Positions 10,854 through 63,436 are shown, counted from the stretch's first letter. The stretch: 64,000 bases of DNA from a virus (IMGVR_UViG_650377940_000003:23323-87322), one strand, 5' to 3'. Notes: generated by a model from the letters alone, not told the origin. Made by a program: numbers and translations.

Positions 10854-10983
10854 ACCGTTGGTCACCTCTCTTTTCCATTTTCAACATTCCTTTCAAAACA
10901 AAAAAGAGAAGCGGCCAGCTCCTTAAAGCCAGCCCTCCTCTCATTGAATTTTATTCCAAATAAATCCTCATAAAAGATGGCTT

Positions 10984-11517
10984 TTACAATCCATGTAAAG
11001 CCGTCTTAACAATCATCGCCGCCTCGAGTTGAACAGGTTTAATGAATTCTCTTTTTGGACGTTTCATTTTTGCACCTTCGCTTCTGAAATACCATTCCAA
11101 ATCCATCCACAATCCATGCTCAATCCAATTTGCGAACATAGTTCCACCAACAGCCTCGTCTTCTTCATCGTTGAATCCAATATTAACGGCTCTTGGATCG
11201 TCATTAAGCCCATTTCGCTTATCTATTCCATACTGAACCTCAGAACGATCTGTGCTATGAGTAAGGAAAACTGATGGCTCTGGTTTGGCAATATCCTTAA
11301 CAATCAGTGAAATTACGTTTCCATCGCGAGACACATTACTAACAATATTTTTTGCGTCAGTAATACCTGATATCCCGTATTTTGGATGGATGTTTTGTTT
11401 TGCACTTTCTTGCAATCTTTGTTCTAGCTGTGGTGCAACATCATCACGGACAATACGCTCCACACCATCTGCCACATCACTCAATAAGTCATCGAAGTTT
11501 GTGTATGACTGTTTCAT
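10984..11517 (-). CDS. Putative tail component (neck/tail completion protein)
   Basis: 177 aa; just upstream of the TMP; ends in ...PKREFIKPV as HK97-gp10-like proteins do. Mainly positional. Confidence 0.45.
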   Translation of the reverse strand: MKQSYTNFDDLLSDVADGVERIVRDDVAPQLEQRLQESAKQNIHPKYGISGITDAKNIVSNVSRDGNVISLIVKDIAKPEPSVFLTHSTDRSEVQYGIDKRNGLNDDPRAVNIGFNDEEDEAVGGTMFANWIEHGLWMDLEWYFRSEGAKMKRPKREFIKPVQLEAAMIVKTALHGL

Positions 11518-11527
11518 TCACTCCACC

Positions 11528-12517
11528 TCAAATCTCAAACCGATCCTTTGCGGACTGAATCTTTGTCGTATCCTTTTTGATGTAATACTTGTTGGTCACA
11601 TCCGTGCCAGCATGGTTGAGCAGGGAAGAGACATCTTCCAGACTCATACCCGCATTCTTCAGCAGGGTAGCACCACTATGCCGGAAATCATGCGGATGCA
11701 GCGTAGGCTCATCAATCATCTCACCTATCTTCTTACACCAGTCCCCGGCAGTGCTTGAGGTAATCGGCATCCATACACCATTGATTTTCGTACCAACAAA
11801 CACATAGCCGCCATCCTCAATATCATGCTCAGTACGGTATTCCTTCAGCTCTTTCAAAAGCTCAGAAACCTCCTTGCTGAACATCAGATCAACAATTTTT
11901 CCTTCCTTCTCCAGAACGTCATGCACCATACGGTTCTCATAATCGATAGACTTCCAGAGTGTATTCCGCACAGCGTTAACACGAGCCATCGTGGATAGCG
12001 AGAACAGTGCGTACAGACGCAGTGTCATCGCATTATCCTTCATGTGAACTGTGGTCGCAGATTCAACCAGAGTGTTCAGCTTCTCTCGCATCAATTTAAC
12101 CTCATCCGGCGTAAGGTATGTCTGCTTCACAACAGCCACATCCTTGGTCGGTCGGTCAATGAACTCCATCGGATTCTCTTTGATGATTTTTTTCTTGCGA
12201 AGATACCGATATAGCGCAGAAATCGTGCTCATGCGCCGCTTCATACGAGCAGAGTTGTTTCCGTGCTTCTTACAGTAGAACAAAAATTCCTCAATATCCT
12301 CTTCTTCAAGTTCCGTCACAGGAGCATTACCCTGATTATCCAGAACATAAATCATCCACTGCTTGAAATCCGATTCATAATTGTAAACAGTAGACGGGCT
12401 GAGGTCGCGGATGCCCATATCAGTCTCATATCTATCCCAGTATTTCAAAGACACTGAATTTACGTTCTTGAACTTCTCAGCATCCCATAACTTCAGCGGT
12501 TTACTTCTTGTAGCCAT
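11528..12517 (-). CDS. Tyrosine recombinase (XerC/D-like) in the tail module
   Basis: SAM-like core-binding N-terminal part; catalytic R (TMAR), HDFR, LNH and Y (TNKYY) present. Confidence 0.9.
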   Translation of the reverse strand: MATRSKPLKLWDAEKFKNVNSVSLKYWDRYETDMGIRDLSPSTVYNYESDFKQWMIYVLDNQGNAPVTELEEEDIEEFLFYCKKHGNNSARMKRRMSTISALYRYLRKKKIIKENPMEFIDRPTKDVAVVKQTYLTPDEVKLMREKLNTLVESATTVHMKDNAMTLRLYALFSLSTMARVNAVRNTLWKSIDYENRMVHDVLEKEGKIVDLMFSKEVSELLKELKEYRTEHDIEDGGYVFVGTKINGVWMPITSSTAGDWCKKIGEMIDEPTLHPHDFRHSGATLLKNAGMSLEDVSSLLNHAGTDVTNKYYIKKDTTKIQSAKDRFEI

Positions 12518-12551
12518 ATTAAAATTCCCTCCAACCCACCTCTAAAAGTGT

Positions 12552-13061
12552 TTATTCCTTTTTATCTTTTGCCAGCACAGCAGAGATCTCCTGCTTATTG
12601 TCCAGCAGAGCAGAAGTCACTTCAGAAAACTTCTCGACGTCAAAGTCATTTAAGTTACCCTTCACATCATTCAAATAGTTCTCCATAAAGTCAACGAAAT
12701 CAGAAATAGGGTCAGGCTTCTCAATAATCTCGTTGAGCTTGCCACAGAGACCAAGAACAAGCCATTCCTTATGAGAACGGTCAATCTGCTCGTGGACAGC
12801 CTTCTCCAGAGAATCGTACTGGTCCCAGAATGCAGAAGTATCACAACCAGCCTTGTTAATCTTGAAGTTAAAAGACTCGTAAGCAATACGCGGCCACTCA
12901 CTCTGCGGCTCACTACGATAATCATAATCCGCAAAATACTTTAGAACGGTCAGCCGAAACACCACATCAAGCAGTGCGGGCTGATAATCACCGTCAATAG
13001 TACATGCCTTAACTACTTCATCAAGAAACTCATTTCGCTCCTGAAAATTTAAAACCTTCAT
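12552..13061 (-). CDS. Hypothetical protein (possible tail assembly chaperone)
   Basis: 169-aa acidic helical ORF with RBS; positional. Confidence 0.45.
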   Translation of the reverse strand: MKVLNFQERNEFLDEVVKACTIDGDYQPALLDVVFRLTVLKYFADYDYRSEPQSEWPRIAYESFNFKINKAGCDTSAFWDQYDSLEKAVHEQIDRSHKEWLVLGLCGKLNEIIEKPDPISDFVDFMENYLNDVKGNLNDFDVEKFSEVTSALLDNKQEISAVLAKDKKE

Positions 13062-13062
13062 T

Positions 13063-13536
13063 TTATCTCCCTTTCGTCTGTGCTTGCTTTAATTTCTTTC
13101 GCTCTTTTCGAGCTTTTTTTAGGTCGTCATAATCGACCCAGCCTCCATCAATTTTGGAGTATGTAATCCAGCGGTAATCTACATCAGGATACTTGAACCA
13201 GAACATCTTGCGCTTCATCAGCGCAACACTATCAGCGAATCCCTTCGTATCAATCACTTGTTTGCTGCCATCTCGATATGTAATTTCATAGTCCGCCACA
13301 TAATCAATCTTCCGCACCGCTACGTCCTTTCCGTCCTTATCGACCCGGCGGAACGCTTCCTGCAGAATAAAGGGGACTTGCTTACGACACTCTATAATTT
13401 CACCGCTTGCCAGCCTTGGCAATACAATATCTCGATAAAACAACATTTCTGCCTTACTATCATAAACTACGCCGTCATATGTTCTATCTGCTGGATTCTT
13501 ACTGACATTAAACTTTGTTCTGTTCTTTTTCTCCAT
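13063..13536 (-). CDS. DUF1064-like PD-(D/E)XK endonuclease
   Basis: YDGVVYDSKAE...QVPFILQ...YVADY...VIDTKG motif pattern. Confidence 0.7.
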   Translation of the reverse strand: MEKKNRTKFNVSKNPADRTYDGVVYDSKAEMLFYRDIVLPRLASGEIIECRKQVPFILQEAFRRVDKDGKDVAVRKIDYVADYEITYRDGSKQVIDTKGFADSVALMKRKMFWFKYPDVDYRWITYSKIDGGWVDYDDLKKARKERKKLKQAQTKGR

Positions 13537-18507: not shown

Positions 18508-20094
18508 CCAAAATTTTTAAGAAAAATGTTTATCTAAAATATTTTCCACATTATCAAAATCCGTGTAGGGAATTCTGATAAGTTTTATTCCGTTATTTTT
18601 ACAATAACTTGTTTTCAAAGAATCTTTCTTTTGCTGATTTTTATATGTAGCAATAGAATCAGACTCGGTTATACTTTTACAAAACCTAACTGGTATAAAA
18701 TGTTGCTGTCCATCATATTCAATGCAAGTATTTTGCGACGGAATATAAAAATCAAAAGGAAGCTGTCTCTCGTTTTTGCAATCTTTAAAGCGATATTCGC
18801 GAATATATGCAATTCCTTTTTTGTCAAGATATTCACATATCTTTTCTTCACCATGTGAGGACCAACACTTAGGACACCCGTGCCCACCGAGTATTGAGTT
18901 GACTGCGGTGTTCCATTCGTAACCGCACTTCTTGCAACGAAAGTTGGCGTGAGATAAAATAGTTTTATACCCGTTCAAATACTCTACACTTGGAGAAGAT
19001 TCCTTTATTCGTTCAATTATTTCAGACTCCATAATATGTGCTTTACCTGCACATTTTGGACAGCCGGAATTTTTATTATTAAGTATCGTATCAGGAATTG
19101 CGGTCCAATGGTAACCGCAAACATCACATGCAAAATCCACTTTCACAGCAACACGGACATATTTTGAAAGAACATGAATAGTAGGAAATCGTTCACGCAT
19201 TTCTTTTAAGAATTCATCTTCCGTTCGTCTGTTTGCAATCCGTCGATAACATTCTGGACACCCATGTCCATCAAGCAATGTATGAGGTATGCCATTCCAC
19301 TCATGCCCATCAAGTTTACAACGACAATGCACTCTCGAATTGTTTGTTGTGTATTCAGATAACAACTCAATATTAGGATTTACTTCAAACAGCTCCGTGG
19401 AAAATTGTATTGGCGACTTTCTTTTTTCTGCTCCACGCTTAGAGGCAACACATGCTTGACACCCACGATTATCAAGCAACATTCTTGCCTGTACTTCACG
19501 TACATCACCGCATACTTTACATTTCCTGGTAATCTTTTTTCGAAGACCATTATATTCGGATAAAATTTCAAAATTTGGGTTTACATCAAACACTTCTTTT
19601 TTGAAGTCTTCTGTCGTTCTCATTGGTGTCATCCATGCTACCTCCTTTCTTGCAAAATAAAAGCCAGACATTCTACACAACATCTGGTCAAATTAAATAT
19701 TAGATAAACATTATATCGGACGCTACTCCGTTCTTGTTGCATCTAGCAACCTCGTACTCTCATACGAGTGAAGACTATATCTTCACCCAGTAAAAACACT
19801 GGGGCACACTACTTTGGATGCCAAACACTTGCATCCTAACCGCTCCCACGCGGATAGTCGTTGAACCTTTTCCTTTTCGGAACTTGGCTGCTGATTGCCC
19901 ATTATTTCAGCGTTTAGGATTTAACCTTGCGCCATCTACAATTTTCTTTCTACTTTCGTAACCGTCCATCTAGGCATATTTCATCCTTCTGCTTTGGTAA
20001 TTGTAGTTTTAGGGTTTTCCAGCAATTCAATGTGTATTTGTTATCGTGACTTACATCACGACTGGACTATATTACGTAAATTTACATAAATTTA
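18508..20094 (-). ncRNA. Group I intron in major capsid gene (1587 nt) with endonuclease ORF
   Basis: P AAUUGCUGGAAAACCC (~20012-20027), Q AAUCAGCAGCC (~19886-19896), R UUCAACGACUA (~19856-19866), S AAGAUAUAGUC (19773-19783). U before the 5' site; terminal G at 18508; in-frame join GAT|AAA. Confidence 0.92.
18517..19632 (-). CDS. Intron-encoded homing endonuclease (Zn-ribbon repeats plus EDxHD/vsr-like PD-(D/E)XK domain)
   Basis: Repeated CxxC...GCPxC units; C-terminal FDFYIPSQNTCIEYDGQQH; likely ATG at 19632 after AGGAGG. Confidence 0.85.
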   Translation of the reverse strand: MTPMRTTEDFKKEVFDVNPNFEILSEYNGLRKKITRKCKVCGDVREVQARMLLDNRGCQACVASKRGAEKRKSPIQFSTELFEVNPNIELLSEYTTNNSRVHCRCKLDGHEWNGIPHTLLDGHGCPECYRRIANRRTEDEFLKEMRERFPTIHVLSKYVRVAVKVDFACDVCGYHWTAIPDTILNNKNSGCPKCAGKAHIMESEIIERIKESSPSVEYLNGYKTILSHANFRCKKCGYEWNTAVNSILGGHGCPKCWSSHGEEKICEYLDKKGIAYIREYRFKDCKNERQLPFDFYIPSQNTCIEYDGQQHFIPVRFCKSITESDSIATYKNQQKKDSLKTSYCKNNGIKLIRIPYTDFDNVENILDKHFS

Positions 20095-29847: not shown

Positions 29848-29914
29848 GTTATAAAACCTACCTTTTAGCCGGTGGTAGGGAACCGGTATAATATAGGCCC
29901 TCCGGGAGAAGGAC

Positions 29915-30006: not shown

Positions 30007-30209
30007 ACAACAAAAACAAGCATCCATCAAGCATCCGAGCTAGTTGAATTGTTCTCGTGTCGATAAAACGCTTGTTTTAGACTTTTAAAGCTTCGCATTA
30101 ACGTAGCGAAACACGAATAGCTTATCATTTCGTTCCACAGAACTACTTTGCATCCAACCATCCGTAGATTGAGTTGGTCTAGGCGGTAGCAGCTATTGAC
30201 CGCACAACT

Positions 30210-30285: not shown

Positions 30286-30286
30286 A

Positions 30287-37905: not shown

Positions 37906-37982
37906 TCAGCAGTCACCTCCGTATTCTTCTAAAACGTATCCTGTATTGTATAGCTATAAAGAAAAAATATAAAATTAGGCTT

Positions 37983-38159
37983 TTACAGATAGCAGCTCTC
38001 GCCATCTTCCATAGCCTTGAGCCAAAGTCGTTCACGCTCCTGATAGAGCTCATCCAGCATATCGTCAGCAGTTTCGTACTCGCTGCGAGTCAGGCTGTTA
38101 CTGTTCATATCACGCACAAGCTGCTTGATATCTACATCAACATCCTCATAAGTACGCAT
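37983..38159 (-). CDS. Small acidic hypothetical protein (58 aa)
   Basis: Manual translation MRTYEDVDVDIKQLVRDMNSNSLTR...ESCYL*. Confidence 0.6.
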   Translation of the reverse strand: MRTYEDVDVDIKQLVRDMNSNSLTRSEYETADDMLDELYQERERLWLKAMEDGESCYL

Positions 38160-46746: not shown

Positions 46747-47028
46747 ATGGCAAAAATGAAACTCGATCCTATTTATCCTGATATCGTTAATCGCTTTCAG
46801 TATGTGAAAACGACTAACGCAGACGCTTGGCAGAAACATGTTAAGAATGTCATTGCAGAGAATGAGTACAATGACCTGTTGACCCGGATTGCGTGGGATT
46901 TACTCATGTATGTGTATACTTCTGATACGATTTCTGGGTGGTACGATAAGTATAATGTACATGATTCGCATATCACAACGGCAGTCAAAAAGGCTTACAT
47001 TGAAGTCTTTGGAATGCCGTCAGAATAA
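46747..47028 (+). CDS. Hypothetical protein
   Basis: 93-aa ORF with RBS. Confidence 0.6.
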   Translation: MAKMKLDPIYPDIVNRFQYVKTTNADAWQKHVKNVIAENEYNDLLTRIAWDLLMYVYTSDTISGWYDKYNVHDSHITTAVKKAYIEVFGMPSE

Positions 47029-47054
47029 AAGATATGTTTTAAGGAGAGCTTGAT

Positions 47055-47847: not shown

Positions 47848-47924
47848 TGTTCACAAAATGCTTACAAATAAACAACGTATCAACGCATTAAAATGTGACG
47901 TTAATAAAATCTACATTTTAGTGC

Positions 47925-50155: not shown

Positions 50156-50395
50156 ATGAAGCGTTTCACCTTGTATGACATTCGCACCGTTGATGATGGT
50201 TGCGGTGTACAGGTTTGTAAGTCAGAGCGATACGATTCCATTGTTTTGCTTGATTCTGATGATTCCAAGAAGAAACTGGGTGAATTTGATACGATTGGAG
50301 AGTTGAAGGAGCTCCTTTATAAGTTTGGCTTACAGTCTTCTTTAGAGAATATCTTAGATGATATTGAAGCGGAAGAAGATTATTATGAGGATTAA
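50156..50395 (+). CDS. Hypothetical acidic protein
   Basis: ATG at 50156 after AGGAG. Confidence 0.55.
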   Translation: MKRFTLYDIRTVDDGCGVQVCKSERYDSIVLLDSDDSKKKLGEFDTIGELKELLYKFGLQSSLENILDDIEAEEDYYED

Positions 50396-50423
50396 AAATC
50401 ATGCTTTTATAGGAGATGAAAAT

Positions 50424-50729
50424 ATGAAAACTGTATATGTTATTGCCGTAAAGCATTTATTCGACTACGAAGGAAACACTCTTAATCGTTGGGAGTATGT
50501 TCAATTTGGTGAGTGTGGGTACACATTTTTTACTGAATCCGTTGATGGTGCGCAGCACTTTTATTCTATTGATAAGGCTCAAAAATGGTTTGATGAAATC
50601 GGTCATGGACTTATCTTTTACGGAAATTGTAAAGGTCAGTATGATTTGGAGTCTCTTTGTATTAAGAGCGTTGTTTTCCGAGACCCTATTGTGAATTTTG
50701 TAAGAGATTTGGATTTCAAAAACTGCTAA
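50424..50729 (+). CDS. Hypothetical protein
   Basis: ATG at 50424 after AGGAG; bracketed by (T/A)AAAA-N6-TTTTA motifs. Confidence 0.6.
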   Translation: MKTVYVIAVKHLFDYEGNTLNRWEYVQFGECGYTFFTESVDGAQHFYSIDKAQKWFDEIGHGLIFYGNCKGQYDLESLCIKSVVFRDPIVNFVRDLDFKNC

Positions 50730-50762
50730 AACAGATATTTTACAATGATTGAGGTGATAAAT

Positions 50763-51933: not shown

Positions 51934-51944
51934 GGGTGTGGAAT

Positions 51945-53181: not shown

Positions 53182-53185
53182 TAAA

Positions 53186-53407
53186 ATGTGGGATTTAGTT
53201 GAAAATGAATATTCTAAAAAATATGGAATTGGGTGCGCAACCTTTTTTCGTGACAAACAATTAAAAACAGCAATGGTTATGTATAAATATAATGGCCGTA
53301 GCGTTATGTTTTGCTATTCCGAGTACGATAATAAGATTCTATCTGACGGTGATAAAGACGAAATTGAGATGACAATCAAAAAGAATCTCAACTTTTGGGA
53401 GGATTAA
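53186..53407 (+). CDS. MWDL-family small protein 1
   Basis: Paralog of the next ORF. Confidence 0.6.
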   Translation: MWDLVENEYSKKYGIGCATFFRDKQLKTAMVMYKYNGRSVMFCYSEYDNKILSDGDKDEIEMTIKKNLNFWED

Positions 53408-53409
53408 CT

Positions 53410-53646: not shown

Positions 53647-53648
53647 TT

Positions 53649-53897
53649 ATGTGGGACCTGAGGGAAGTTCACGCTTGTTTTGATGGTGAAGGCTGGGTTT
53701 GGAATGAATCTTTCCATCACAAGAATGTGTTCGTAGACGCGAATGAAGATCCGAAAGAAATCTTTTGGCAGGAATGTCAGATGTTCTTTCTTCAGGATTA
53801 TCTAAGCAAGTGTGAAATCGTGGATGACGGCGATATTCTGGAGCTTCAGTTGAAAGATTCCGGTGAACCGGTTCTTGCTATGATGATTGCAGAGTAA
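53649..53897 (+). CDS. MWDL-start small protein 3
   Basis: GGAGG RBS; shares only the start with the two preceding genes. Confidence 0.6.
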   Translation: MWDLREVHACFDGEGWVWNESFHHKNVFVDANEDPKEIFWQECQMFFLQDYLSKCEIVDDGDILELQLKDSGEPVLAMMIAE

Positions 53898-53910
53898 AGG
53901 AGAATAAATT

Positions 53911-54231
53911 ATGAAAATTCACCCTAAATATATTGATGTTTTGGAATCGCTGGATTGGCGCGTATGTGACTATACAGGTGATGGCAGAGTTGAAATTGAA
54001 AATTATTCTCCAGCAGGAGAGGACTTAATCGTTTGTGTGGAGGTTGAAAATTTTCCTGAATCAGTTTATGAGTATGCCTGTGATTTTGATGCTGATGAGC
54101 ACGCAGAGATGTGGGTGGGACATCGTGGGGAAAGAGGTTGTCCTTCTAGTGTCAGAGAACTTATTGACGATGCTGATGCTATTAAAGAAATGTTGGAAGA
54201 ATTAGCTAATAGACTTATGGAGGTGGAATAA
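53911..54231 (+). CDS. Hypothetical acidic protein
   Basis: AAGGAG RBS. Confidence 0.6.
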   Translation: MKIHPKYIDVLESLDWRVCDYTGDGRVEIENYSPAGEDLIVCVEVENFPESVYEYACDFDADEHAEMWVGHRGERGCPSSVRELIDDADAIKEMLEELANRLMEVE

Positions 54232-54234
54232 ATT

Positions 54235-54507
54235 ATGACTCGTTTTTATCTTAATGCGGGTGCTCTTGGCCGTTGGATGCACCAGAATAAAGCACAACAC
54301 ACTGGTGCTTATGTTGAAGGTGTTTTGGTCGATAGCTTTGTTGTCGAAACAAAGCGTGGTGTTGCAGCTATCTATGAACACTACCTGAATGAGTGGACAA
54401 GCAACTATTATGTTGAGTTCACCGATTACAAGAACGGTTTTAAGAATGGAGAGGTCGATAAGATTTGGTCTGATTGGTACGCTTTTGAAGAAAAGGCAAG
54501 CGCATAA
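54235..54507 (+). CDS. Hypothetical protein
   Basis: GGAGG RBS. Confidence 0.6.
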   Translation: MTRFYLNAGALGRWMHQNKAQHTGAYVEGVLVDSFVVETKRGVAAIYEHYLNEWTSNYYVEFTDYKNGFKNGEVDKIWSDWYAFEEKASA

Positions 54508-54514
54508 GAGGTGA

Positions 54515-54706
54515 ATGGATATGAGCGACACTGAAAAGATTATCAATGCGTTAAAAGATGAATATTCTTATTGGCAGAATACCGCTTATAAAGCACAAAA
54601 AGAAGGCAATGAAGAGAGAACGATATGGTATTATGGCAAAGCAACAGGAATAAAAAAATCTATCGAAACAATCAAAAAAATGAAGGATTACGGAATCATT
54701 TTATAA
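54515..54706 (+). CDS. Hypothetical protein
   Basis: GAGGTG RBS. Confidence 0.5.
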   Translation: MDMSDTEKIINALKDEYSYWQNTAYKAQKEGNEERTIWYYGKATGIKKSIETIKKMKDYGIIL

Positions 54707-54722
54707 AAGGGAGATTTTAGAT

Positions 54723-55589
54723 ATGGAAAACCTGTATTGCTATGATAATGAAATCATAAAGTGGACTTACGGCGACAATCTGTACTGCTTACATATTCAG
54801 CACGATGACATTGCAGACAATAATCCTCGCTGGTGGGATGATCATGATTCTGTAATGGCTTGTTTTCATCCTCGTTATCATCTTGGTGATAAGATCGATG
54901 CGAGTACGGCAGAAGATTTTTGGAATAATCTTGTTTACGAGTATTGCTCCGATGAAGAAGTTTTAGATGCACTTTTTAACATGAAGTTGGAAGATACCTG
55001 TGCCATTGTTGATGAAAATTATAGTGACGAAAAACGATACGCCATCTGTGGTATCGGAACTCTTTTTGATGAAAAAGTTTCTGTAAATCCAATGTATGTT
55101 GGTCTGAAGTATAACGAAATCGTTATTTATGTCCATGGTGAATTGTCTATTCGTGATTGTCAGATTCTTCTTGATAAGCATATTGCATGGCTTCCTCTTT
55201 GGCTGCATGACCATTCTGATTTGTCTATGGATTGCGATACGCGGTTCAGAGGTTCATGGGATGATAGTAATGTTGGCTGGATTGTAACAGCTATTACGGA
55301 TGGTTTGGATAATACCAAAAATGAAGCAGAACGAATCATGCGTGATGAGGTGAAGGAATACAGTGACTATCTTTCTGGTGAGAACTATGGCTATACGCTT
55401 TATCGAGAAGAGCACGGAGAATGGAAAGAGATTGATAGAGCATTCGGTTTTATCGGTTCTGACGTGTTTGAAAACGGTATCACATATAGCGTTGGTTGTG
55501 GCCTTGAAACAGCATTAAAGGAAGATCGATGCCGTATTGGTGACGCTGAGAAAGTCGTTACCGTCACTTATAACTTTGATAAATGTTGA
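54723..55589 (+). CDS. Conserved phage/ICE hypothetical protein (PLWLHDHS...WD...VGWI...EV..Y..YL.GE.YGY family)
   Basis: 288 aa; motif pattern familiar from mobile-element early regions; function unknown to me. Confidence 0.65.
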   Translation: MENLYCYDNEIIKWTYGDNLYCLHIQHDDIADNNPRWWDDHDSVMACFHPRYHLGDKIDASTAEDFWNNLVYEYCSDEEVLDALFNMKLEDTCAIVDENYSDEKRYAICGIGTLFDEKVSVNPMYVGLKYNEIVIYVHGELSIRDCQILLDKHIAWLPLWLHDHSDLSMDCDTRFRGSWDDSNVGWIVTAITDGLDNTKNEAERIMRDEVKEYSDYLSGENYGYTLYREEHGEWKEIDRAFGFIGSDVFENGITYSVGCGLETALKEDRCRIGDAEKVVTVTYNFDKC

Positions 55590-55608
55590 ATTTTAGGAGG
55601 AAGATATC

Positions 55609-56103
55609 ATGGATGACAATATGATGGAACGTCAGATTGCTGATTATATGGTGAAATACGGCACTGAGAATACAAACTATGGAATGTGGTCATTTGAAGT
55701 AGATGAGTTGACAGAGAAGTTTGGCGTAACAAAACAATGGGTACAAGAACACAGTGATGGAATTCTTAGCGAGTTATATCTTCGACAAGAAGTAGAAGAT
55801 GTTGAACGGCAGTTTGGCGGAAGTGATTTTCATCTCGAAAATATTTTTATTTGGTATTTTACCGATTTTTGCCCTAACTACATTGAAGACGAACAGGAAA
55901 AAGATGATGGTGTAGATCAATATTGGTTTGCACCAACGTGTTGGTGTACTGATGATGTTATCGAAGCAGCAAAACGGAACGGGATTGTGTTGACTCCGCA
56001 ACAGGCTGAACAGTGGTGGCAGAAGAACGAAAAGTGGTTCAAGGATACTCTTACTGAATACGGTAATGAGATTCTTTTCAATGCGAATTTTAGTGAGGTG
56101 TAA
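55609..56103 (+). CDS. Hypothetical two-module protein
   Basis: N-terminal part paralogous to 51012..51320. Confidence 0.6.
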   Translation: MDDNMMERQIADYMVKYGTENTNYGMWSFEVDELTEKFGVTKQWVQEHSDGILSELYLRQEVEDVERQFGGSDFHLENIFIWYFTDFCPNYIEDEQEKDDGVDQYWFAPTCWCTDDVIEAAKRNGIVLTPQQAEQWWQKNEKWFKDTLTEYGNEILFNANFSEV

Positions 56104-56118
56104 AAGGAGAGTTTTATT

Positions 56119-56277
56119 ATGAAGTATCAGGTAACTGTAGCTCGTACTGGCTATGTTGAAATTGAAGCCGATAATGAGCAAGAAGCGATGGATATTGTTG
56201 CAAACGATATGAATTCAAAAGATATTGAATGGACGTGTGATTTTACAGTAACGGATTGTGAAGAAAGTGAGGAATAA
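56119..56277 (+). CDS. Small DpnD/PcfM-like protein (52 aa)
   Basis: MKYQVTVARTGYVEIEADNEQEAMDIV pattern; manual translation. Confidence 0.5.
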   Translation: MKYQVTVARTGYVEIEADNEQEAMDIVANDMNSKDIEWTCDFTVTDCEESEE

Positions 56278-56280
56278 ATT

Positions 56281-56844
56281 ATGGCTATCGTAAATGGATT
56301 TGATACTAAGGAACTGCGATATATCCTCTTTGGTGATAGAGGCTATGAGATATACAAGGAAAACGATTTTTACTACCTAAGTAATGGATATGTTCTTGTA
56401 AAATGCGATTTTGATGTTATCGTAAAAACGTTAGCAGATTTGCCAGAGTTAAAGATTCCTAATAACGGATATGGTTACAAGTTTAATGAAGAAGATGGCT
56501 GGTCTAATTCTGATATTACAATGCTCCACAAATATTTTGAATACGTAAATCCTAGTCGTTGTTCATATTGGGAAAAATTTCATGATGTAAAAGAGTTTAG
56601 ACGAATTCAACACAAAGAAATCAGAGGTTGTTGTGAATATAGTTATCCGTGTATCGTTTGCGAGATGGATAATAAAAATAAGGCTTTACTAAATGAGAAG
56701 TATACAAATATTCTAGCAAAAGCGAAAAAATGGGGTTGGTTTGCAGAGTGCAAGGATAGTTTAAGCTGCGTTCACTTTATGAATAAACAGAACACTCTTG
56801 AAGCATGGATTTGCCCGATTCGTTACAAAGAAGGTGCTATCTAA
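56281..56844 (+). CDS. Hypothetical protein
   Basis: 187-aa ORF; GAGG RBS. Confidence 0.6.
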   Translation: MAIVNGFDTKELRYILFGDRGYEIYKENDFYYLSNGYVLVKCDFDVIVKTLADLPELKIPNNGYGYKFNEEDGWSNSDITMLHKYFEYVNPSRCSYWEKFHDVKEFRRIQHKEIRGCCEYSYPCIVCEMDNKNKALLNEKYTNILAKAKKWGWFAECKDSLSCVHFMNKQNTLEAWICPIRYKEGAI

Positions 56845-57243
56845 TGTTCTATCATCTTGAATATTCAGTTAGACACTTTATGTACGGCGATACATATAGA
56901 GGGCATGAAATCTATCCCACAAAAGAGCTGCGTGATGCAGAGATTGATTGGATGAAAACGTGTTACAGCAAGCCGACAGAACTTGTCTATACAACATATG
57001 AAACCGAAACACTCAGTGAAGATAAGATAATAATATAATGAGGAATTAAGGGAGTGAGAGTTATGATTATCCAAAATTGCGGATGGAATCATTCAGTGGA
57101 CGAAGTTAAGGAAGCTCTTGATACACTTTCATATTGGTTAAGAGAAGGTGTGACAGTTGGGATTTTTAATGAAGAAACCAACAAATGTGAGTTACTAAAA
57201 CCTTTTGATTCAGAAAAATCTTTTATTTTGGGGGCATTAACTT

Positions 57244-57537
57244 ATGACGGCACGTGAGATTGCAGAAGATTTTATTTCTAAGATGAATCCGTCTAGGTGG
57301 GCTGGCGTAGGTCAAAAACCTGATAACTTTGACACTAGAATTAAAACATACACCATTGATGGTTTTTATGAATATGAGCTTGATGTTTCATATGATGAAG
57401 ATGAGCTTGGTTACGTTGTTATGCTTGAAATAAGATGGGCAGACGATGGAGAGTTAATTTACGTTCTTGACACTCAAAGGGTTAATTCTGAAGATGCAAT
57501 CGAATACTCAATCAATTCTCTTATTGATAATCTTTAA
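57244..57537 (+). CDS. Hypothetical protein
   Basis: 97-aa ORF. Confidence 0.55.
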   Translation: MTAREIAEDFISKMNPSRWAGVGQKPDNFDTRIKTYTIDGFYEYELDVSYDEDELGYVVMLEIRWADDGELIYVLDTQRVNSEDAIEYSINSLIDNL

Positions 57538-57757
57538 TAGAATAATATAAAGGAGAATGAATATGACAAAATTTGAGAAACAGACGGTTATTAACGCATT
57601 GCATTTTTATAGCGAATATTGTTGCAACCACAGTGAAAAATCTGCGAATATGATAGCACAGAAATGTACGGCTGAAGGATTGCTTTATACGTTTCAATCT
57701 ATTCTGGACGAAAAGGCAGGAAGTGTAAAAATCTAAATAGAATCGAGGTTTTAGAAA

Positions 57758-57958
57758 ATGGAACGAACTATGAACGATAAACTTATGGAAGCAGCACAGG
57801 TTCTTATTGAAAATGGAATGAGTGCAGATGATGCGTATGTTGCTTTGCAGGCGCAGTGTTATATCCTTTTGAATATAGAGACTGATGATTACATCTCGCA
57901 AGAAGATTACGATGAACTGGAAGAATACGAGCAACAATTGAATAAAAAGGGAATGTGA
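57758..57958 (+). CDS. Hypothetical protein
   Basis: GAGG RBS inside a TAGAA-N6-TTTTA motif. Confidence 0.55.
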   Translation: MERTMNDKLMEAAQVLIENGMSADDAYVALQAQCYILLNIETDDYISQEDYDELEEYEQQLNKKGM

Positions 57959-58182
57959 CCATGATTACAGTTGTTTATGACGATACGATGTGTAATGGGC
58001 CTTACCGTGTAGAGCACAAAACAATGGAAGATGCGGTAGAGTCTGTTAATAATGATTTTGAAAGTCTGATGAAAGAACTGCGAGATGAAGGCTATGAACC
58101 TGAATGGATTCGTGACGGCCATCATATGCTTGAGGTTTATGTTCCGAATACGTCTATTAACGCATGGTGGGATTTTGAGTAA
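57955..58182 (+). CDS. Hypothetical protein
   Basis: Coupled to the previous ORF. Confidence 0.55.
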   Translation: MTMITVVYDDTMCNGPYRVEHKTMEDAVESVNNDFESLMKELRDEGYEPEWIRDGHHMLEVYVPNTSINAWWDFE

Positions 58183-58193
58183 GGAGAATTGAA

Positions 58194-58532
58194 ATGAAAA
58201 TCAAACTTGAAATCGAAAATGATTGTGGGCTCTTTAAAGCAAACAATAATGAAGAACCTGATCGATTGAAAATCTATGATAGTAATGGCGAGTATACCGA
58301 ATATATAGATGTAAGCGATGTTATTACAGAGGAAATGGATGATCTTTATTTGGCTGCAACAAATAAGGATTCACATTATGTAGCTACTCGCTTGGCAAAA
58401 CTACTTTACAATCAAGGGTCTGAGATTGTAGGCGTTATTGATAATGCAGATTTCGGCCACCTCTATGAATTGTATGGGGAAGAATTTGTGAATCGTATTG
58501 GAAACTGTGCTTTGGTATTTAAGGAGGTTTAA
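58194..58532 (+). CDS. Hypothetical protein
   Basis: AAGGAG RBS. Confidence 0.55.
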   Translation: MKIKLEIENDCGLFKANNNEEPDRLKIYDSNGEYTEYIDVSDVITEEMDDLYLAATNKDSHYVATRLAKLLYNQGSEIVGVIDNADFGHLYELYGEEFVNRIGNCALVFKEV

Positions 58533-58534
58533 AA

Positions 58535-58741
58535 ATGGATATCAACGAAATTAAGATGTTTGAGCAGAAGATGATTGATAGTGCATTTATTGATGCTGTT
58601 GATTATGATCCAAAGGTGGCTGCACGAGCTGTAGGAGCACGCAAGATGAAAATGAAGGGCGTATGCTCTTTTAACGAGTACATTGGATATTTGCAGACAA
58701 TCACTGGCAATGCAAAGTTGTTCTGGAAGTATCAGTTTTGA
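58535..58741 (+). CDS. Hypothetical protein
   Basis: GGAGG RBS. Confidence 0.55.
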   Translation: MDINEIKMFEQKMIDSAFIDAVDYDPKVAARAVGARKMKMKGVCSFNEYIGYLQTITGNAKLFWKYQF

Positions 58742-58750
58742 GGTGACGAT

Positions 58751-59011
58751 ATGGTTTTGAAGCTTGAGTTTACAGATGGTCACGAGCCTTGGATATCATT
58801 CCCTATGAATAGAGAAGAGGCTCTAAAACTGTGGAATAGTCTAAGTAAGATGCCAACGATACGACCGGAGTTTAGATTTGGCAAATTGAAGTGTCGATGT
58901 GATTGTCTTGGCAACTGGTATGTTGCTCAGTGGTTTGATGGAATGCATAAGAGTAAGACATTCAGATATCTTGCCAATGCCTTGAAATACATGGAAAAAG
59001 AAACGGCTTGA
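58751..59011 (+). CDS. Hypothetical protein
   Basis: GAGGTG RBS. Confidence 0.55.
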   Translation: MVLKLEFTDGHEPWISFPMNREEALKLWNSLSKMPTIRPEFRFGKLKCRCDCLGNWYVAQWFDGMHKSKTFRYLANALKYMEKETA

Positions 59012-59041
59012 TAAAACAGTTCTTCTAGGAGGGAAGATAAA

Positions 59042-59287
59042 ATGAATGAAAAGCAATTTGCAATTGATACACCTATCGGAAAGATTATCGCAGAAGGCAT
59101 TACAGAGCCATATCCTGAGATTGTGATTTACCTTAAAAGAAATGATGGCGAAACAATTAACCTGTCCAGTATCAATTACGAAAGTTGTGGTGATATTGAA
59201 AGTTATCTTTGGATGGATGTGTTCAGTGATGAGTACACGAATCATAAGAGCTGGCCGTTTGAAGATTTGACCGCAGATTTTTCTTAA
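59042..59287 (+). CDS. Hypothetical protein
   Basis: GGAGG RBS. Confidence 0.55.
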   Translation: MNEKQFAIDTPIGKIIAEGITEPYPEIVIYLKRNDGETINLSSINYESCGDIESYLWMDVFSDEYTNHKSWPFEDLTADFS

Positions 59288-59310
59288 TAAATATAAAGGA
59301 GTAAAACAAA

Positions 59311-60627
59311 ATGACTACCAACAATCCTATGACCGTAATAACCTCAAAGTCCTTTGGCGCACTGAATGTGGATGTGTACCAGAATGACAAGCACCAGTAT
59401 TACATGACTCGTGAACAGATTGGTGCAGCGCTAGAGTACAATAATCCTAATAAGGCAATTCAAAACATCCATGTTAAGAATACGGATCGTCTTGACCCTC
59501 TTTCAACATTCCTCAAACTGAGGAAAGTTGAGGGCGGAATCACGAAGGAACGTGAATATATTGTTTACAGTTTGCGTGGTGTTATGGAAATCTGCCGTCT
59601 GTCACGTCAGCCGAAAGCAGATGCGTTCATGGATTTCTGCTGGGACATTATGGAATCTCTGATGCGTGGTGATTCTGTTTTGGCTACTCCTAAGATGGAT
59701 GCTGCACTGAGCAAAGAATTCATTGATGTAAGACTTCACGCTCTGTTTGATAGTATGAAGAACCTTCAGAATGAACTTAATTCCACCCGTAAGGATCTCA
59801 GTGAACAGATTGAGGAGGCTCGCGCCACCAGCAATGAAGCGCTGAATGTGATTAGCAGCGTATCTCAGTGTGTCCATCAGATTAAGGACAAGCAGATGGA
59901 TGATGCGATTCGTTCTACTAGAAACTTCACTCCTCGTAAGGATGTGATGAGTGACTGGCGTAAGAAGATGTATGAACGTATCAATGTGATTGCCGCAATC
60001 AATGAAATGAAGGTTCAGGATGTGTTCCGTGATATTTACGAATATATGAATCGTGTCTATACCTTCGTTATTGAGGAAGAGCGCAGAAAGTATTGTGCAA
60101 GAACCGGTCGCACTGGTCATATTCCTACGATTGATGTGGTTGAAGCAAGTACGATGTATAAGTCCATCTTTGGTGCCTTGGTTGAAGATTCGTATACTGA
60201 AGCAATCAATAAGAAGAAGGAAGAGACCGCTGATCAGAAAGCTCTGCCTGAAGCTAAGGCTGTTGAAGCAGCTCCTGAAGTGGATGTTTGTGTTGCTCCT
60301 GTGATTGATGTAGAAGCCAAGGAAGTTGAACCTGAGCCGGTTGTAGAGGAGAAGCCTAAGAAGCAGACTGAGACGGCAAAGATTCTTTTCCCTATTATGC
60401 TTCCTCTGGCAGAAAAGCTTGGTGATAAGCCGCAGTACAAGCACACTTACACTCTGATTTATGAGCGTATTGGCTATAAGAAAATGAATAATTTGTTTGT
60501 GGCTTACGAAAAGGCACACGGTAAGGCACCTCATCCGAAAACTAAGGTGTTTATCGAAAATGAAAAGAGCCTCGCGCTGTTTAAGAAGACTGTAAAGCAG
60601 CTGATGAAGGAACAGGAGAATAAGTAA
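59311..60627 (+). CDS. BRO-N domain protein (antirepressor-like)
   Basis: MTREQIGAALEY.NP..AI...H...YSLRGVMEICRLSRQPKADAFMDF; coiled-coil middle. Confidence 0.82.
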   Translation: MTTNNPMTVITSKSFGALNVDVYQNDKHQYYMTREQIGAALEYNNPNKAIQNIHVKNTDRLDPLSTFLKLRKVEGGITKEREYIVYSLRGVMEICRLSRQPKADAFMDFCWDIMESLMRGDSVLATPKMDAALSKEFIDVRLHALFDSMKNLQNELNSTRKDLSEQIEEARATSNEALNVISSVSQCVHQIKDKQMDDAIRSTRNFTPRKDVMSDWRKKMYERINVIAAINEMKVQDVFRDIYEYMNRVYTFVIEEERRKYCARTGRTGHIPTIDVVEASTMYKSIFGALVEDSYTEAINKKKEETADQKALPEAKAVEAAPEVDVCVAPVIDVEAKEVEPEPVVEEKPKKQTETAKILFPIMLPLAEKLGDKPQYKHTYTLIYERIGYKKMNNLFVAYEKAHGKAPHPKTKVFIENEKSLALFKKTVKQLMKEQENK

Positions 60628-61248
60628 ATGTATGTAATATCGAATGGTCACAACTACATTATGAAACGGAAGGGAGGTCGAATCTGCGCCACCTGTGATA
60701 TCAATCTGGCATTACAGTTTGAATCCAAGGGACTGGCGATTTGTGAAATCAACAAACTTCCCGCCGGGTATAAGAACGGGCGCTACGCACCGAAGTCTAT
60801 GGATGAAGCTACCATCGCAGGCAAGAGTCCAAATATAACGGCTCCGGCTGTAAAGCCAAATACATACGCATTTCACATGGAAGATTCTGAATGGCTGGCG
60901 GAACTTAAAAAGAATTTGGTTATCACAGATAAAACTATGTGTAATCTGAAAGAGATGTATTCAAAAGTGTACGGTGATTTGACTGCTGCAAGTGATGAGA
61001 TTGATGATCTTGAGCACGCTATTGAGTTCAAAACTGTGAATGCAGCACAAGGTTATCAGCTTATGGCAGAACTCAAAAGAGCTCGCCGGAGGCGTAGAGA
61101 AGCTAAGGACGCAAAGCTTTTGCTTGAGATCGTTATGAATACAGAAACCAGAGAATGGGGAGATGGCAAGCTAGAGACTGCTATTGAGCAACTTGGCACT
61201 CGTCAGTTTACTCCGAAGGTTCGTAATGATCTATTTGAAAAGAATTGA
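60628..61248 (+). CDS. Hypothetical coiled-coil protein
   Basis: 206-aa ORF abutting the BRO gene. Confidence 0.6.
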   Translation: MYVISNGHNYIMKRKGGRICATCDINLALQFESKGLAICEINKLPAGYKNGRYAPKSMDEATIAGKSPNITAPAVKPNTYAFHMEDSEWLAELKKNLVITDKTMCNLKEMYSKVYGDLTAASDEIDDLEHAIEFKTVNAAQGYQLMAELKRARRRRREAKDAKLLLEIVMNTETREWGDGKLETAIEQLGTRQFTPKVRNDLFEKN

Positions 61249-61508
61249 GGTACATAAAAATGAAGGTCTATATTTTGCACGAATGTATTGATTCTAGCGA
61301 TTTTTACGCAGAAGATAATGTGATTATGGTCACAAAGGATAGAGTCAAAGCAATTGATAAAATGGTATTCCTGTTCAATGAAAGCAAGGATGACCTACAG
61401 CCTGTGAGCGATGATGAGACGTGGTGCGAAGCTGCGGAAGCATCTGTTGTTTGTAGTGGTGAAAGTTATTATCGTCATCACTGGAAGATTAATGAATTCG
61501 AGGTGTGA
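61245..61508 (+). CDS. Hypothetical protein
   Basis: 87-aa ORF (likely start ATG at 61260). Confidence 0.5.
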   Translation: MRYIKMKVYILHECIDSSDFYAEDNVIMVTKDRVKAIDKMVFLFNESKDDLQPVSDDETWCEAAEASVVCSGESYYRHHWKINEFEV

Positions 61509-61511
61509 GTT

Positions 61512-61694
61512 ATGCTCAAATATGGAAATATAACGTGTAAACGTTGTGGTATTACATGGTATGGACCAAAATGCGGAAAGCTTTACTGTGAAGAGTGTCG
61601 TAAGGTTGTAAACAACGAGAAGAGTCTCAAATGGTACAGAAGTAATAGAGAGCTTGTTGCAAGGAATCGTGCAGAGAGAAAGGCAATGAGGTGA
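61512..61694 (+). CDS. Small Zn-finger protein
   Basis: CKRC...CEEC. Confidence 0.55.
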   Translation: MLKYGNITCKRCGITWYGPKCGKLYCEECRKVVNNEKSLKWYRSNRELVARNRAERKAMR

Positions 61695-62518
61695 ATGTGA
61701 TGAGTGCAGTTGTTGAAAGAAAAGAAGAACAGATATCTAAATTGATCTATTTTAATCCGAAGCCTTCTGTTCCGGCTAAAAAACGTGGTGTTACAAAAAG
61801 TAAGCAGAAGCGCAAGCGTAATATTTCTCCAATTAGAAGCTTGGATGATGTTCAAATGATTTCGGAATACTTCTGGGATAAAAAGCAATATCGCAATTGG
61901 TGTCTATTTAATGTCGGTATTGCAACTGGGTTGCGTGCTAGTGACTTGCTTAAATTGAAAGTTTCTGATATGTCTTACTGTCTTTATAATGGAAAAATTG
62001 AGGTGGTTGAGGACGCAGGAACTTGCATCGTCGAAGAAAAGACTTCTAAATATCGTGAAATCATTCTTACTCCAGAAGCGAGAGACATCGTTGAAACGTA
62101 CATCAGGATTGCGAATCTTGAATATGACGATTGGATGTTTCCGTCTCGGCAGGGGAGTTGGAAAAAGTCGTTGAGGACAAATGGTGGGGATGGGAAAACC
62201 GGTATTCCTCATATTGCAGAACCCAAAAAGGCCGGTGATCCTATTGATGTTGATTCTTTTGCTCGTATTCTTCGTAATGCTGGTAAGGATTTAGGTCTTA
62301 ATTATAAGATTGCATCTCATTCTTGTCGTAAGACATTTGGTTATCGTGAGATGTGTCTTAATAAGGATGATAACCAGGCATTGTCTTGGATTCAGGGTCA
62401 GTTGAATCATAGTAGTCAGGATATTACATTACGGTATGTTGGTTTTGATGATGATAAGGCAAAAGAATATTATAAGAAGACTTTTTATGGTGTGAATACA
62501 CACAGCTTGGAAGACTGA
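61691..62518 (+). CDS. Tyrosine recombinase (catalytic domain only)
   Basis: TGLRASDLL, SHSCRKTFGY, LNHSS and ITLRY: full R-H-R-H-Y set. Confidence 0.92.
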   Translation: MNVMSAVVERKEEQISKLIYFNPKPSVPAKKRGVTKSKQKRKRNISPIRSLDDVQMISEYFWDKKQYRNWCLFNVGIATGLRASDLLKLKVSDMSYCLYNGKIEVVEDAGTCIVEEKTSKYREIILTPEARDIVETYIRIANLEYDDWMFPSRQGSWKKSLRTNGGDGKTGIPHIAEPKKAGDPIDVDSFARILRNAGKDLGLNYKIASHSCRKTFGYREMCLNKDDNQALSWIQGQLNHSSQDITLRYVGFDDDKAKEYYKKTFYGVNTHSLED

Positions 62519-62523
62519 GGCGT

Positions 62524-63201
62524 ATGATGGCTGATACTTATATTAAGATCTGGGATACTTACGAGAGCTACTTTGAACCCCTTAGTGCTGCCGAGGTAGG
62601 GCGTCTGGTACTGGCGATGATGAAATATAAATCGTCTGGAACGGAGCCTGAACTCAACGGAAATGAGCGGTATGTGTGGCCTGCTGTGAAGAGAGATTTG
62701 GATAAAGATGCCGAATACATCGAAGGTAAGAGAATTTCTGGTAAAGCTGGTGGCTCATCAAGCAAGCGTAAGCAAAACGAAGCAAACGCAAGCAAAACAA
62801 AGCTAGAAAAAGAAAAAGAGAAAGAAAAAGATAAGATATCGTCTTCGTCTTGTTGTGAGACGACAACGACGAAACCTATCGAAGATGTTTTCCGAGAGAA
62901 TATCGGGAAGCTTGGTGCTACTAGTCAAAAGGCTTTAGCAAAATATGTTGATCGCATGGGTGACGAACTTGTGCTTGCTGTGATTGGTAAGTGTTCGGAT
63001 CTGGGTGGTAGTACATGGGCTTATGTGCGAAAAGCTTTGGATGAAGCAGAATCTCTTGGTTGCAAGACTGCTGATGATTATCGCCGGGCTTGTCCGATAG
63101 GGAGTGGTCGTAATCTTAGAGTGAGTAGGGAGATGCCTAGCGGTGGTGATTGGCTGAAGAACGCAACGCATAGACGTCCGCTAATAAAGAAAGACGCTTA
63201 A
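62524..63201 (+). CDS. Replication initiator-like protein (DUF6291-like N-terminus plus DnaD-like domain)
   Basis: SYFEPLSAAEVGRLVLAMMKY; C-terminal MGDELVLAVI...TWAYVRKALDEA. Confidence 0.75.
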   Translation: MMADTYIKIWDTYESYFEPLSAAEVGRLVLAMMKYKSSGTEPELNGNERYVWPAVKRDLDKDAEYIEGKRISGKAGGSSSKRKQNEANASKTKLEKEKEKEKDKISSSSCCETTTTKPIEDVFRENIGKLGATSQKALAKYVDRMGDELVLAVIGKCSDLGGSTWAYVRKALDEAESLGCKTADDYRRACPIGSGRNLRVSREMPSGGDWLKNATHRRPLIKKDA

Positions 63202-63224
63202 AAGTAATATTTTAGGAGGAGCTT

Positions 63225-63416
63225 ATGGGTAATTGGTACAAAGTATCAGGTCAATACGATGACGGTTGTAAGGTGTATAAGAAAGACTATATCGTCTTTG
63301 CAGAGTCTAGCTCTGATGCAGAACAAAAGATTTTTCACTTGAAATTGCCGTATGATTGTTCTTTTTTCCCTTGCACGGTAACTCAGTTGATTAAAAATAT
63401 TATTTATGAATTTTAA
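63225..63416 (+). CDS. Hypothetical protein
   Basis: Bracketed by two perfect TAAAA-N6-TTTTA motifs. Confidence 0.55.
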   Translation: MGNWYKVSGQYDDGCKVYKKDYIVFAESSSDAEQKIFHLKLPYDCSFFPCTVTQLIKNIIYEF

Positions 63417-63436
63417 TAAAAGAGTGATTTTAGGAG

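Follow-up and report, generated by a model that had tools for sequence, protein, structure and literature searches.

The dif sites of Xer recombinases consist of two 11-bp arms around a 6-bp centre, and the arms of difSL and difH carry A4/T4 runs by that centre (PMC5357621). A similar architecture is seen in the element studied here, the palindrome TAAAA-N6-TTTTA, which recurs at gene boundaries in a 64,000-nucleotide (nt) stretch of viral DNA, IMGVR_UViG_650377940_000003:23323-87322 (the whole stretch is called the window below, and coordinates count from its first letter unless they are given as record positions). With a strict 5-6-5 dyad in this phage, an 11-6-11 dyad in the model phage SPbeta and A4/T4 runs that abut the centre, the palindrome has the inverted arms around a 6-8 bp centre that mark the core sites of tyrosine recombinases, and the phage itself encodes Xer-like recombinases, which might bind and cleave the palindrome. 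Xer systems differ in that they use one site per replicon for dimer resolution, whereas here there are 20-37 sites per genome with differing centres.

Other described systems share part of this picture. In Acinetobacter plasmids, pdif/dif modules acted on by XerC/XerD likewise form an accessory region with many inverted-arm sites around 6-bp centres, and these sites flank small adaptive gene modules that differ between relatives (PMC6449649). The pdif sites have distinct XerC and XerD arms, use host recombinases and delimit modules that move between plasmids, whereas the palindrome has identical arms and hence no C/D polarity, carries unique cores that are bound to their positions, and lies on a phage replicon. 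The stoperators of cluster A mycobacteriophages are tens of conserved short intergenic sites, also found inside operons (PMC9283540, PMC6550527). The palindrome too is present as many conserved intergenic sites in a temperate phage; however, stoperators are asymmetric 13-bp sites that a monomeric immunity repressor binds and that point in the direction of transcription, whereas the palindrome is a dyad with a variable, site-specific core. In T4-type phages, the repeated intergenic element of promoter early stem-loop (PeSL) cassettes marks modular shuffling in hyperplastic regions of small genes (PMC2839356), a likeness that extends to the regions considered here. PeSLs combine a promoter with a terminator over tens of bases and recombine by homology, also within one genome, giving mini-circles; in contrast, the palindrome has 10 shared bases and neither a stable stem nor a promoter, and its unique cores should bar exchange within a genome.

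The SPbeta family has a dispersed intergenic element of its own, SPBRE, which is bound by MrpR (YopR), a protein of the tyrosine-recombinase fold that has lost catalysis (PMC10516654). SPBRE is 15 bp long and has about ten promoter-proximal copies, whereas the palindrome has 34 copies in SPbeta, mostly away from promoters. Upstream of SPbeta aimR and yorE the palindrome lies beside, not within, a different shared A-rich sequence (SPBRE), and yopM carries this A-rich sequence without the palindrome. An assignment of the palindrome as the SPBRE/MrpR operator was rejected because its sequence differs from SPBRE. The SPbeta literature that we searched describes only SPBRE and does not mention the palindrome, and no paper on it was found in the searchable literature. 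Our preferred reading, which is tentative and to which we assign a probability of roughly 0.45, is that a protein docks at the palindrome and that the site also serves as an addressed joint for recombination.

Results

Copies, spacing, and placement

The window is part of a 151-kb IMG/VR provirus record, of which positions 1 to ~134,500 align with five ~135-kb relatives; the phage is therefore ~135 kb long, and the rest of the record, which has a higher G+C content, is taken to be host flank, with an integrase gene at the junction. The source is a large gut prophage of the SPbeta-like kind, with late genes on the minus strand up to ~41 kb and a long run of small early genes on the plus strand beyond ~41 kb. 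The window contains 13 perfect copies of the palindrome, compared with a mean of 0.25 and a maximum of 1 in 100 dinucleotide-preserving shuffles, in agreement with a first-pass annotation of the sequence, which had expected fewer than one copy per 64 kb. All 12 copies listed in that annotation exist, and a 13th, at 13050, had been overlooked. The copies are given below with the open reading frames (ORFs), ribosome-binding sites (RBSs), and transfer RNA (tRNA) genes that they adjoin.

7541..7556: intergenic, in the late minus-strand arm; a promoter-like stretch of that strand comes next
10971..10986: minus-strand TAA ends ORF 10984-11517, which follows the gene of the Xer-like recombinase directly downstream
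13050..13065: spans a stop/start overlap: ORF 13063-13536 ends, and ORF 12552-13061 begins (ATG), within it
29852..29867: downstream of tRNA-Ser; the sequence right after it differs in relatives
30064..30079: between tRNA-Ser and tRNA-Thr
37970..37985: stop of ORF 37983-38162, 64 nt upstream of the YonO-like RNA polymerase gene
47026..47041: stop of ORF 46747-47028, with an RBS directly after
47905..47920: ends 4 nt short of the -35 hexamer in the strong early promoter 47925-47953
50727..50742: stop of ORF 50358-50729
54704..54719: stop of ORF 54515-54706, with the RBS of the next gene within the core
56101..56116: stop of ORF 55609-56103, with an RBS within the core
63199..63214: stop of ORF 62524-63201
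63417..63432: adjoins the stop of ORF 63225-63416; relatives have another gene downstream

In the whole record there are 21 copies, compared with 1 in a reversed control, and all 21 were counted for the ~135-kb prophage. When spacings from N0 to N15 were scanned over the record, N6 accounted for 21 copies and each of the others for 0-3, and in an unbiased scan of all gapped palindromes with 5-mer arms TAAAA-N6-TTTTA ranked first by a wide margin. Since only N6 is enriched, base composition, stop codons and A-rich ribosome sites are not the cause. An artefact of stop codons set in A-rich RBS context, which the first-pass annotation had named among the findings that would undo its proposal, is thus ruled out by the N6-only peak together with the host-genome controls given below; the enrichment stays, and it is specific to this spacing.

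The copies lie near-exclusively between genes, in both genome arms, and this placement is informative because two of three frames on each strand could hold the motif inside a gene. The left-arm TAA is the stop codon of the upstream ORF in eight of the 13 copies and a ninth (63417) abuts a stop, so that the link to stop codons proposed earlier stands with nine copies rather than seven. Of the remaining four, two precede promoter-like sequence (7541, 47905) and two adjoin tRNA genes (29852, 30064). Most copies are inside operons, 2 to 30 nt before the next start codon, and have no fixed promoter geometry. Just two strong plus-strand promoters, at 45354 and 47925, were found in a scan of the early arm (44001-64000), and among the seven copies in this region only 47905 adjoins one of them. 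The bracketing of single genes that had been described holds for ORF 63225-63416, which lies between two perfect copies, and for 50424-50729 only if a one-mismatch copy at 50394 is counted, while 54704 and 56101 enclose two genes instead of 55609..56103 alone.

Copies with one mismatch, of which the window has 18, are slightly enriched here and are not enriched in SPbeta or in phage BUCT082; the arms are all-or-none. Five of the 18 are decayed orthologues of sites that are perfect in relatives, which shows that individual sites can be lost. Each of the five has one arm mismatch:

50394..50409: orthologous site perfect in five relatives
53182..53197: perfect in three relatives
55580..55595: perfect in two relatives
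57738..57753: perfect in three relatives
59012..59027: perfect in one relative

A subclass of the palindrome is followed directly by a run of five bases common to its members and then by AT-rich, promoter-like sequence; its members lie at 7541-7561 in the window (minus strand) and at record positions 101292 and 125415. The subclass may mark a distinct class of promoter.

Occurrence in related phages and in hosts

The palindrome is a family-wide and phage-specific signature. The five close relatives have 19-27 copies each, and TAAAA-N6-TTTTA is the top-ranked gapped palindrome, with the same spacing peak, in four further phages:

SPbeta: 34 copies, 2.4 expected from arm frequencies
BUCT082: 37 copies, 2.4 expected from arm frequencies
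Clostridium phage c-st: 31 copies, 10 expected from arm frequencies
phiCD211: 26 copies, against a mean of 6.7 at other spacings

All four motif-bearing lineages have a temperate lifestyle, as prophages or plasmid prophages. In five Clostridia host genomes the palindrome is not in excess, with four of them falling below the control and one slightly above it. The palindrome is not enriched in YonO-bearing Enterocloster phages, does not occur in the 22 kb that surround the polymerase gene in each of 15 intermediate prophages, and is missing from the phages Sundance and KKP_3916, the latter of which has five copies of a related dyad that may be mere gene starts. Two Enterocloster phages, PMBT24 and CB473P3, carry ~10 copies of a different 17-bp AT palindrome with a 5-base, AT-only centre. 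This 17-bp palindrome often adjoins terminators or promoter-like hexamers.

A promoter for the YonO-type polymerase was considered as an identity for the motif and rejected, since SPbeta has a single late YonO promoter (PMC5467207) and since the motif is present in phiCD211, which has no YonO match, yet absent from the YonO-bearing Enterocloster phages.

A probable duplex site with conserved cores

In SPbeta the dyad extends to 28 bp, in the 11-6-11 arrangement mentioned above, and the centres of the half-sites lie ~11 bp apart. The inner edges of the arms follow a mirror-symmetric rule, with almost never an A after the left arm or a T before the right arm. Neither covariation nor pairing beyond column composition was found at flank and core positions, and predicted RNA folds of the copies range from 0 to -3.8 kcal/mol, with four of the eight tested at 0 to -0.1 kcal/mol and no better than shuffles. 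A double-stranded protein site fits best with this lack of flank covariation and with such weak RNA hairpins, and we therefore predict that the palindrome is probably a docking site on duplex DNA for two identical protein subunits.

An element that acts in RNA, as a cistron-end hairpin or protein-bound sequence for processing, stability or the coupling of termination to reinitiation, would account for the overlap with a stop codon in 8 of the 13 copies and for the position of sites right before or around the next RBS. However, its stems would consist of five A-U pairs, half of the tested folds have a free energy of ~0 kcal/mol, and there is no compensatory extension of the stem; moreover, the copies before promoters and by tRNA genes are unfit for a role at cistron junctions, and the mirror-symmetric preferences at the inner edges are those expected for duplex DNA. 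We consider a role in RNA to be highly improbable. An extended RNA hairpin was rejected for the lack of covariation and the weak folds, which also speak against the RNA-processing hairpins that the first-pass annotation had offered as an alternative.

The 6-bp spacers, hereafter cores, all differ, as had been reported for the window, and no repeated core and no palindromic core occurs within any of 11 genomes; given the numbers, this absence of repeats is a hint and not significant. Between genomes, the cores are shared in order. This phage has 13-15 of its 21 cores in common with each relative, in the same order, and SPbeta shares 22-23 of 34 with phi3Ts and BUCT082, the 23 shared with BUCT082 being collinear. 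At orthologous sites where both flanks could be aligned, 7 of 66 core columns, 10 of 110 arm columns and 157 of 660 flank columns were variable (core versus flank, p=0.008), counts that overstate independence because the sequences are related, although the pattern recurs site after site. Most of the core variation comes from a single site, 37970. A spacer that is not read by a protein should drift like the flanks; the core does not. At 30064 the 16-mer is intact in 66 of 71 relatives with variable flanks around it, and the other five have only a gap at its last base. Each core persists at its position in the genome where unrelated genes replace the flanking ones, and the unique cores thus behave as conserved addresses. 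Some cores are common to different lineages (three, for example, are shared with c-st); these were rejected as homologous, as they have no flank homology, and are regarded as chance matches.

Mosaic boundaries at the sites

Among 216 same-core pairs between relatives, both flanks are homologous in 114 and one or both are non-homologous in 102, with homology limited to the downstream flank in 44 pairs, to the upstream flank in 24 and to neither in 34. The flanking ORFs fall into unrelated, reassorted groups, and a single address can have four upstream and five downstream groups. In the window, four unrelated groups of upstream ORFs occur at 54704 among relatives, modules on both sides of 56101 are reassorted, and homology to three relatives begins or ends at the edges of 47026. 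No module turned up at an address other than its own.

When entire intergenic gaps are compared (the alternative being a window around the stop codon), breakpoints between SPbeta and both phi3Ts and BUCT082 fall in 19 of 29 gaps that contain the motif versus 41 of 152 motif-less gaps (p=1e-4), and in the early arm of this phage the corresponding numbers are 9 of 9 versus 77 of 127 (p=0.014). There is thus an excess of mosaic boundaries at the sites, as the first-pass annotation would have it, in SPbeta and in the early arm. When the stop-codon window is used instead, 13 of 21 sites have a BLAST breakpoint versus 48% of other junctions (p ~0.13). Blocks that are 100% identical between SPbeta and phi3Ts point in the same direction, as six of the 12 block ends that abut unalignable DNA lie <=10 nt from a site and two such blocks span from site to site. 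One example is mtbP, the gene for a multispecific methyltransferase (SPbeta record 113664-115059), which has a palindrome at each end; the block between the two palindromes is 100% identical in SPbeta and phi3Ts, and the sequence outside both sites differs. Exact-block ends among the relatives of this phage itself were too few to be informative.

The first-pass annotation had read the sites as an integron-like system, in which a tyrosine recombinase would excise small genes as circles and insert them at palindromes acting as attC/attI. Several intact tyrosine recombinases are indeed encoded, small genes are bounded by sites, and gene content between sites varies among relatives. However, the attC sites of integrons are long imperfect palindromes that fold as single strands, occur one per cassette and are bound to that cassette, whereas the palindrome is a site of 16 bp (28 bp in SPbeta) that folds weakly, has no foldable extended stem and keeps its core with the position and not with the cassette. 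If a recombinase inserted a circular cassette, identical cores would remain at its two borders; flanking sites never have a common core, and this counts against an integron. Furthermore, none of the recombinases lies at the start of the array or is tied to the sites, over half of all breakpoints are at junctions without the motif, and crossovers in laboratory hybrids can be motif-free (see Discussion). The integron reading is thus largely refuted, on several defining features, and we give it almost no weight.

Candidate recombinases

The record encodes three ORFs that match PF00589, none of them at the head of the array, where integrons have their integrase beside attI and a promoter, with the array running in one direction. 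Two lie in the window, and both are intact, as had been noted earlier; a further protein of interest lies beyond it:

11528..12517, minus strand: Xer-like tyrosine recombinase of 329 amino acids (aa), in the tail-gene module; catalytic residues present
61691..62518, plus strand: second tyrosine recombinase, 275 aa, in the early arm; no N-terminal core-binding domain detected
Record positions 92196-93122, outside the window: 308-aa protein with a weak, sub-threshold match to the N-terminal core-binding domain of MrpR

The 329-aa Xer-like protein is a candidate, as yet unproven, for the partner of the sites. Its gene precedes the tape-measure gene, in the same region as SPbeta YomM, and in relatives with a polymerase of only 83% identity the protein is still 99% identical. 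Homologues are present in the motif-bearing phages c-st (55% identity) and phiCD211 (37%), and the family was not found in five genomes with motif-less YonO prophages. The 275-aa recombinase, which is just 48% identical in four of five relatives, is a weaker candidate than the 329-aa protein. The 308-aa protein, as far as its weak domain match goes, would likely be a fourth protein of the recombinase fold and the master repressor. The earlier idea of recombinase sites is supported in part, by the inverted arms with their 6-bp centre, by the breakpoint excess at motif gaps and by the persistence of cores at swaps; neither recombinase in the window could be tied to the sites.

Other features of the phage

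The single-subunit RNA polymerase that has been mentioned above is 38-44% identical to its counterparts in Enterocloster phages and c-st and 24% identical to SPbeta YonO:

35122-37905, minus strand: RNA polymerase ORF, YonO type, matching RdRP family PF05183

An operator-like block lies directly before the -10 hexamer and is conserved across early promoters. It is probably the operator of an MrpR-like repressor of this phage, the counterpart of SPBRE in SPbeta. Its copies are as follows:

47925-47953, plus strand: operator-like promoter block, the top isolated repeat among relatives
Near 37935, 41606 and 41673, minus strand: reverse-strand copies of the block
Record positions 93158 and 114766: further copies

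The late arm contains a small group of tRNA genes:

29915-30362, minus strand: tRNA genes Ser-TGA, Thr-CGT and Thr-TGT

The tRNA-Ser gene has a palindrome on either side, and relatives differ past the first palindrome; in two of them, the sequence past that palindrome resembles the start of another tRNA.

Two paralogous zinc-finger proteins are also encoded in the late arm:

18517-19683 and 31703-32674, both minus strand: paralogous zinc-finger proteins with treble-clef DUF4379, CapR and DUF723 matches

The 18517-19683 protein has additional weak matches to DUF559/DUF2726 (endonuclease type), and the 31703-32674 protein matches the SPbeta yomD region (annotated as an endonuclease) by tblastn. 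Both products may be free-standing nucleases within the late operon. Such CapR/zinc-finger endonuclease-like proteins (YomD homologues) were tried as candidates for the protein that binds the palindrome and rejected, as they are absent from phiCD211 and do not fit the distribution profile of the motif.

Two further loci lie outside the window:

Record positions 93194-95413: kinase-phosphatase-RNA ligase fusion of the tRNA-repair type
Record positions 101379-102515: Sak4-like AAA_24 annealase, with an SSB-like gene adjoining

Discussion

Our results lead us to propose that a pair of identical protein subunits, either of a tyrosine-recombinase-fold protein or of a small helix-turn-helix dimer, would dock on the duplex palindrome, which marks where gene modules have their upstream edge. 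Recognition would rest on the two 5-bp arms, the element common to all copies, and the 6-bp core would serve as an address that is different at each position and kept by related phages. In encounters between related phages or prophages, exchange could then take place between copies of one address and replace the genes that border them on both sides. Reading frames would stay unbroken in such an exchange, with the left arm giving the TAA stop and the core or right flank carrying the next RBS. Catalysis might be provided by an Xer-like recombinase acting across the 6-bp core or, alternatively, by the annealing recombinase of the phage using the conserved 16-28 bp; the phage has machinery for both, namely, intact orphan tyrosine recombinases and the Sak4-like annealase. 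That a protein binds the site, which protein this might be, and that the site causes exchange rather than survives it are all points that we infer.

A more specific form of this proposal is that the sites serve a natural recombinase-mediated cassette exchange, in which the Xer-like recombinase would swap modules in register between copies at the same position. Different, non-palindromic cores would then bar recombination within one genome, and the system would be a natural counterpart of the heterospecific lox/FRT sites used in genetic engineering. Tyrosine-recombinase core sites are cleaved at the edges of their centre and recombine only where the centres are identical; the evidence on this point is indirect, in cores that are unique in a genome and conserved at each site. 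We regard this specific form as unlikely.

The main rival explanation is that the palindrome is purely regulatory or architectural, an operator at which a phage-encoded dimer (for example, a helix-turn-helix protein of the Cro/C1 type) silences or tunes operons, with the link to mosaic boundaries arising as a by-product of a conserved element that fills the gaps between genes. The dispersed KorB operators of IncP plasmids are a precedent for such an operator. Dyad symmetry without covariation, strict conservation, phage specificity and an intergenic position in both genome arms are all compatible with such an operator, as are the temperate lifestyle of all four motif-bearing lineages and the one copy that adjoins the -35 hexamer of the main early promoter. 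Islands of promoter, operator, or RBS sequence are likewise retained where both flanks have been swapped. There are precedents in phages as well, as many conserved intergenic repressor sites stop elongation in mycobacteriophages (PMC9283540) and SPbeta has a dispersed, repeated operator in the SPBRE/MrpR system (PMC10516654). In contrast, the core at each orthologous site is conserved like the arms, whereas the spacer of a free operator would be expected to change as freely as the flanks. Most copies, moreover, are internal to operons and stand in no constant geometric relation to a promoter. Furthermore, the arms are conserved between phages whose RNA polymerases are 24% identical, while the repressor operator is not shared, and chromatin affinity purification sequencing (ChAP-seq) of MrpR gave ten peaks, all at SPBRE promoters (PMC10516654). 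We consider a purely regulatory role possible, though less likely than the joint, and the binding site for a phage regulator that the first-pass annotation had named as an alternative stays fully viable.

Several observations weigh against a docking site that doubles as an addressed joint. In this phage only the 5-bp arms are conserved, which is short for the arm of a recombinase, and 37970 is the sole site with both core and arms variable among relatives. Over the whole phage, breakpoints fall in 10 of 13 motif gaps versus 95 of 179 others, which is not significant (p=0.08), and a breakpoint is also found at about one in two junctions that lack the motif. The site takes up all of the space from stop to RBS, so any gene swap that leaves both neighbours intact has to stop at its edges, and the edge-precise boundaries are thus weak evidence of causation; promoter/operator and RBS elements, too, are retained as islands where the sequence on both sides has been exchanged. 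Three phi3Ts x SPbeta hybrids evolved in the laboratory have crossover intervals that correspond to stretches of 39 to 18,235 bp shared by the two phages. The longer stretches are bounded by sites, with the position of the crossover within a shared stretch not resolvable, and three short ones (39-55 bp) are motif-free, from which it follows that ordinary homologous recombination suffices. As for the enzyme, the family of the 329-aa Xer-like protein is present at 42% identity in the motif-less phages Sundance and KKP_3916, and in SPbeta YomM, its positional counterpart, as well as in YopP, a lysine replaces the second catalytic arginine. Finally, profiling of the proteins of this phage against four motif-bearing and four motif-less phages gave no candidate for the binder, with only replication enzymes and a dUTPase shared.

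The binder is possibly a small, fast-evolving helix-turn-helix protein or a host factor. A factor of the host that is conserved among Firmicutes, for instance its Xer recombinases or a nucleoid protein, would explain why no phage protein tracks the motif and why phages of Bacillus, Clostridium, Clostridioides, and gut Clostridia have kept these arms, and it would suit the dif-like architecture. However, host genomes have no enrichment of the palindrome, its arms differ from those of B. subtilis dif (PMC5357621), and related phages of similar hosts are without the motif, which together make a host binder quite improbable.

SPbeta has been a model phage for 50 years, and the palindrome is its most over-represented motif. 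The same motif links SPbeta with prophages of Clostridium botulinum, Clostridioides difficile, and human-gut Clostridia. If the palindromes are addressed joints, they would provide a concrete mechanism by which the boundaries of phage mosaics fall exactly at gene ends, and they would explain the reshuffling of accessory, toxin-linked, and anti-defence genes in large temperate phages of Firmicutes. As a genome-wide operator, by contrast, the palindrome would point to a new global regulator of this phage family.

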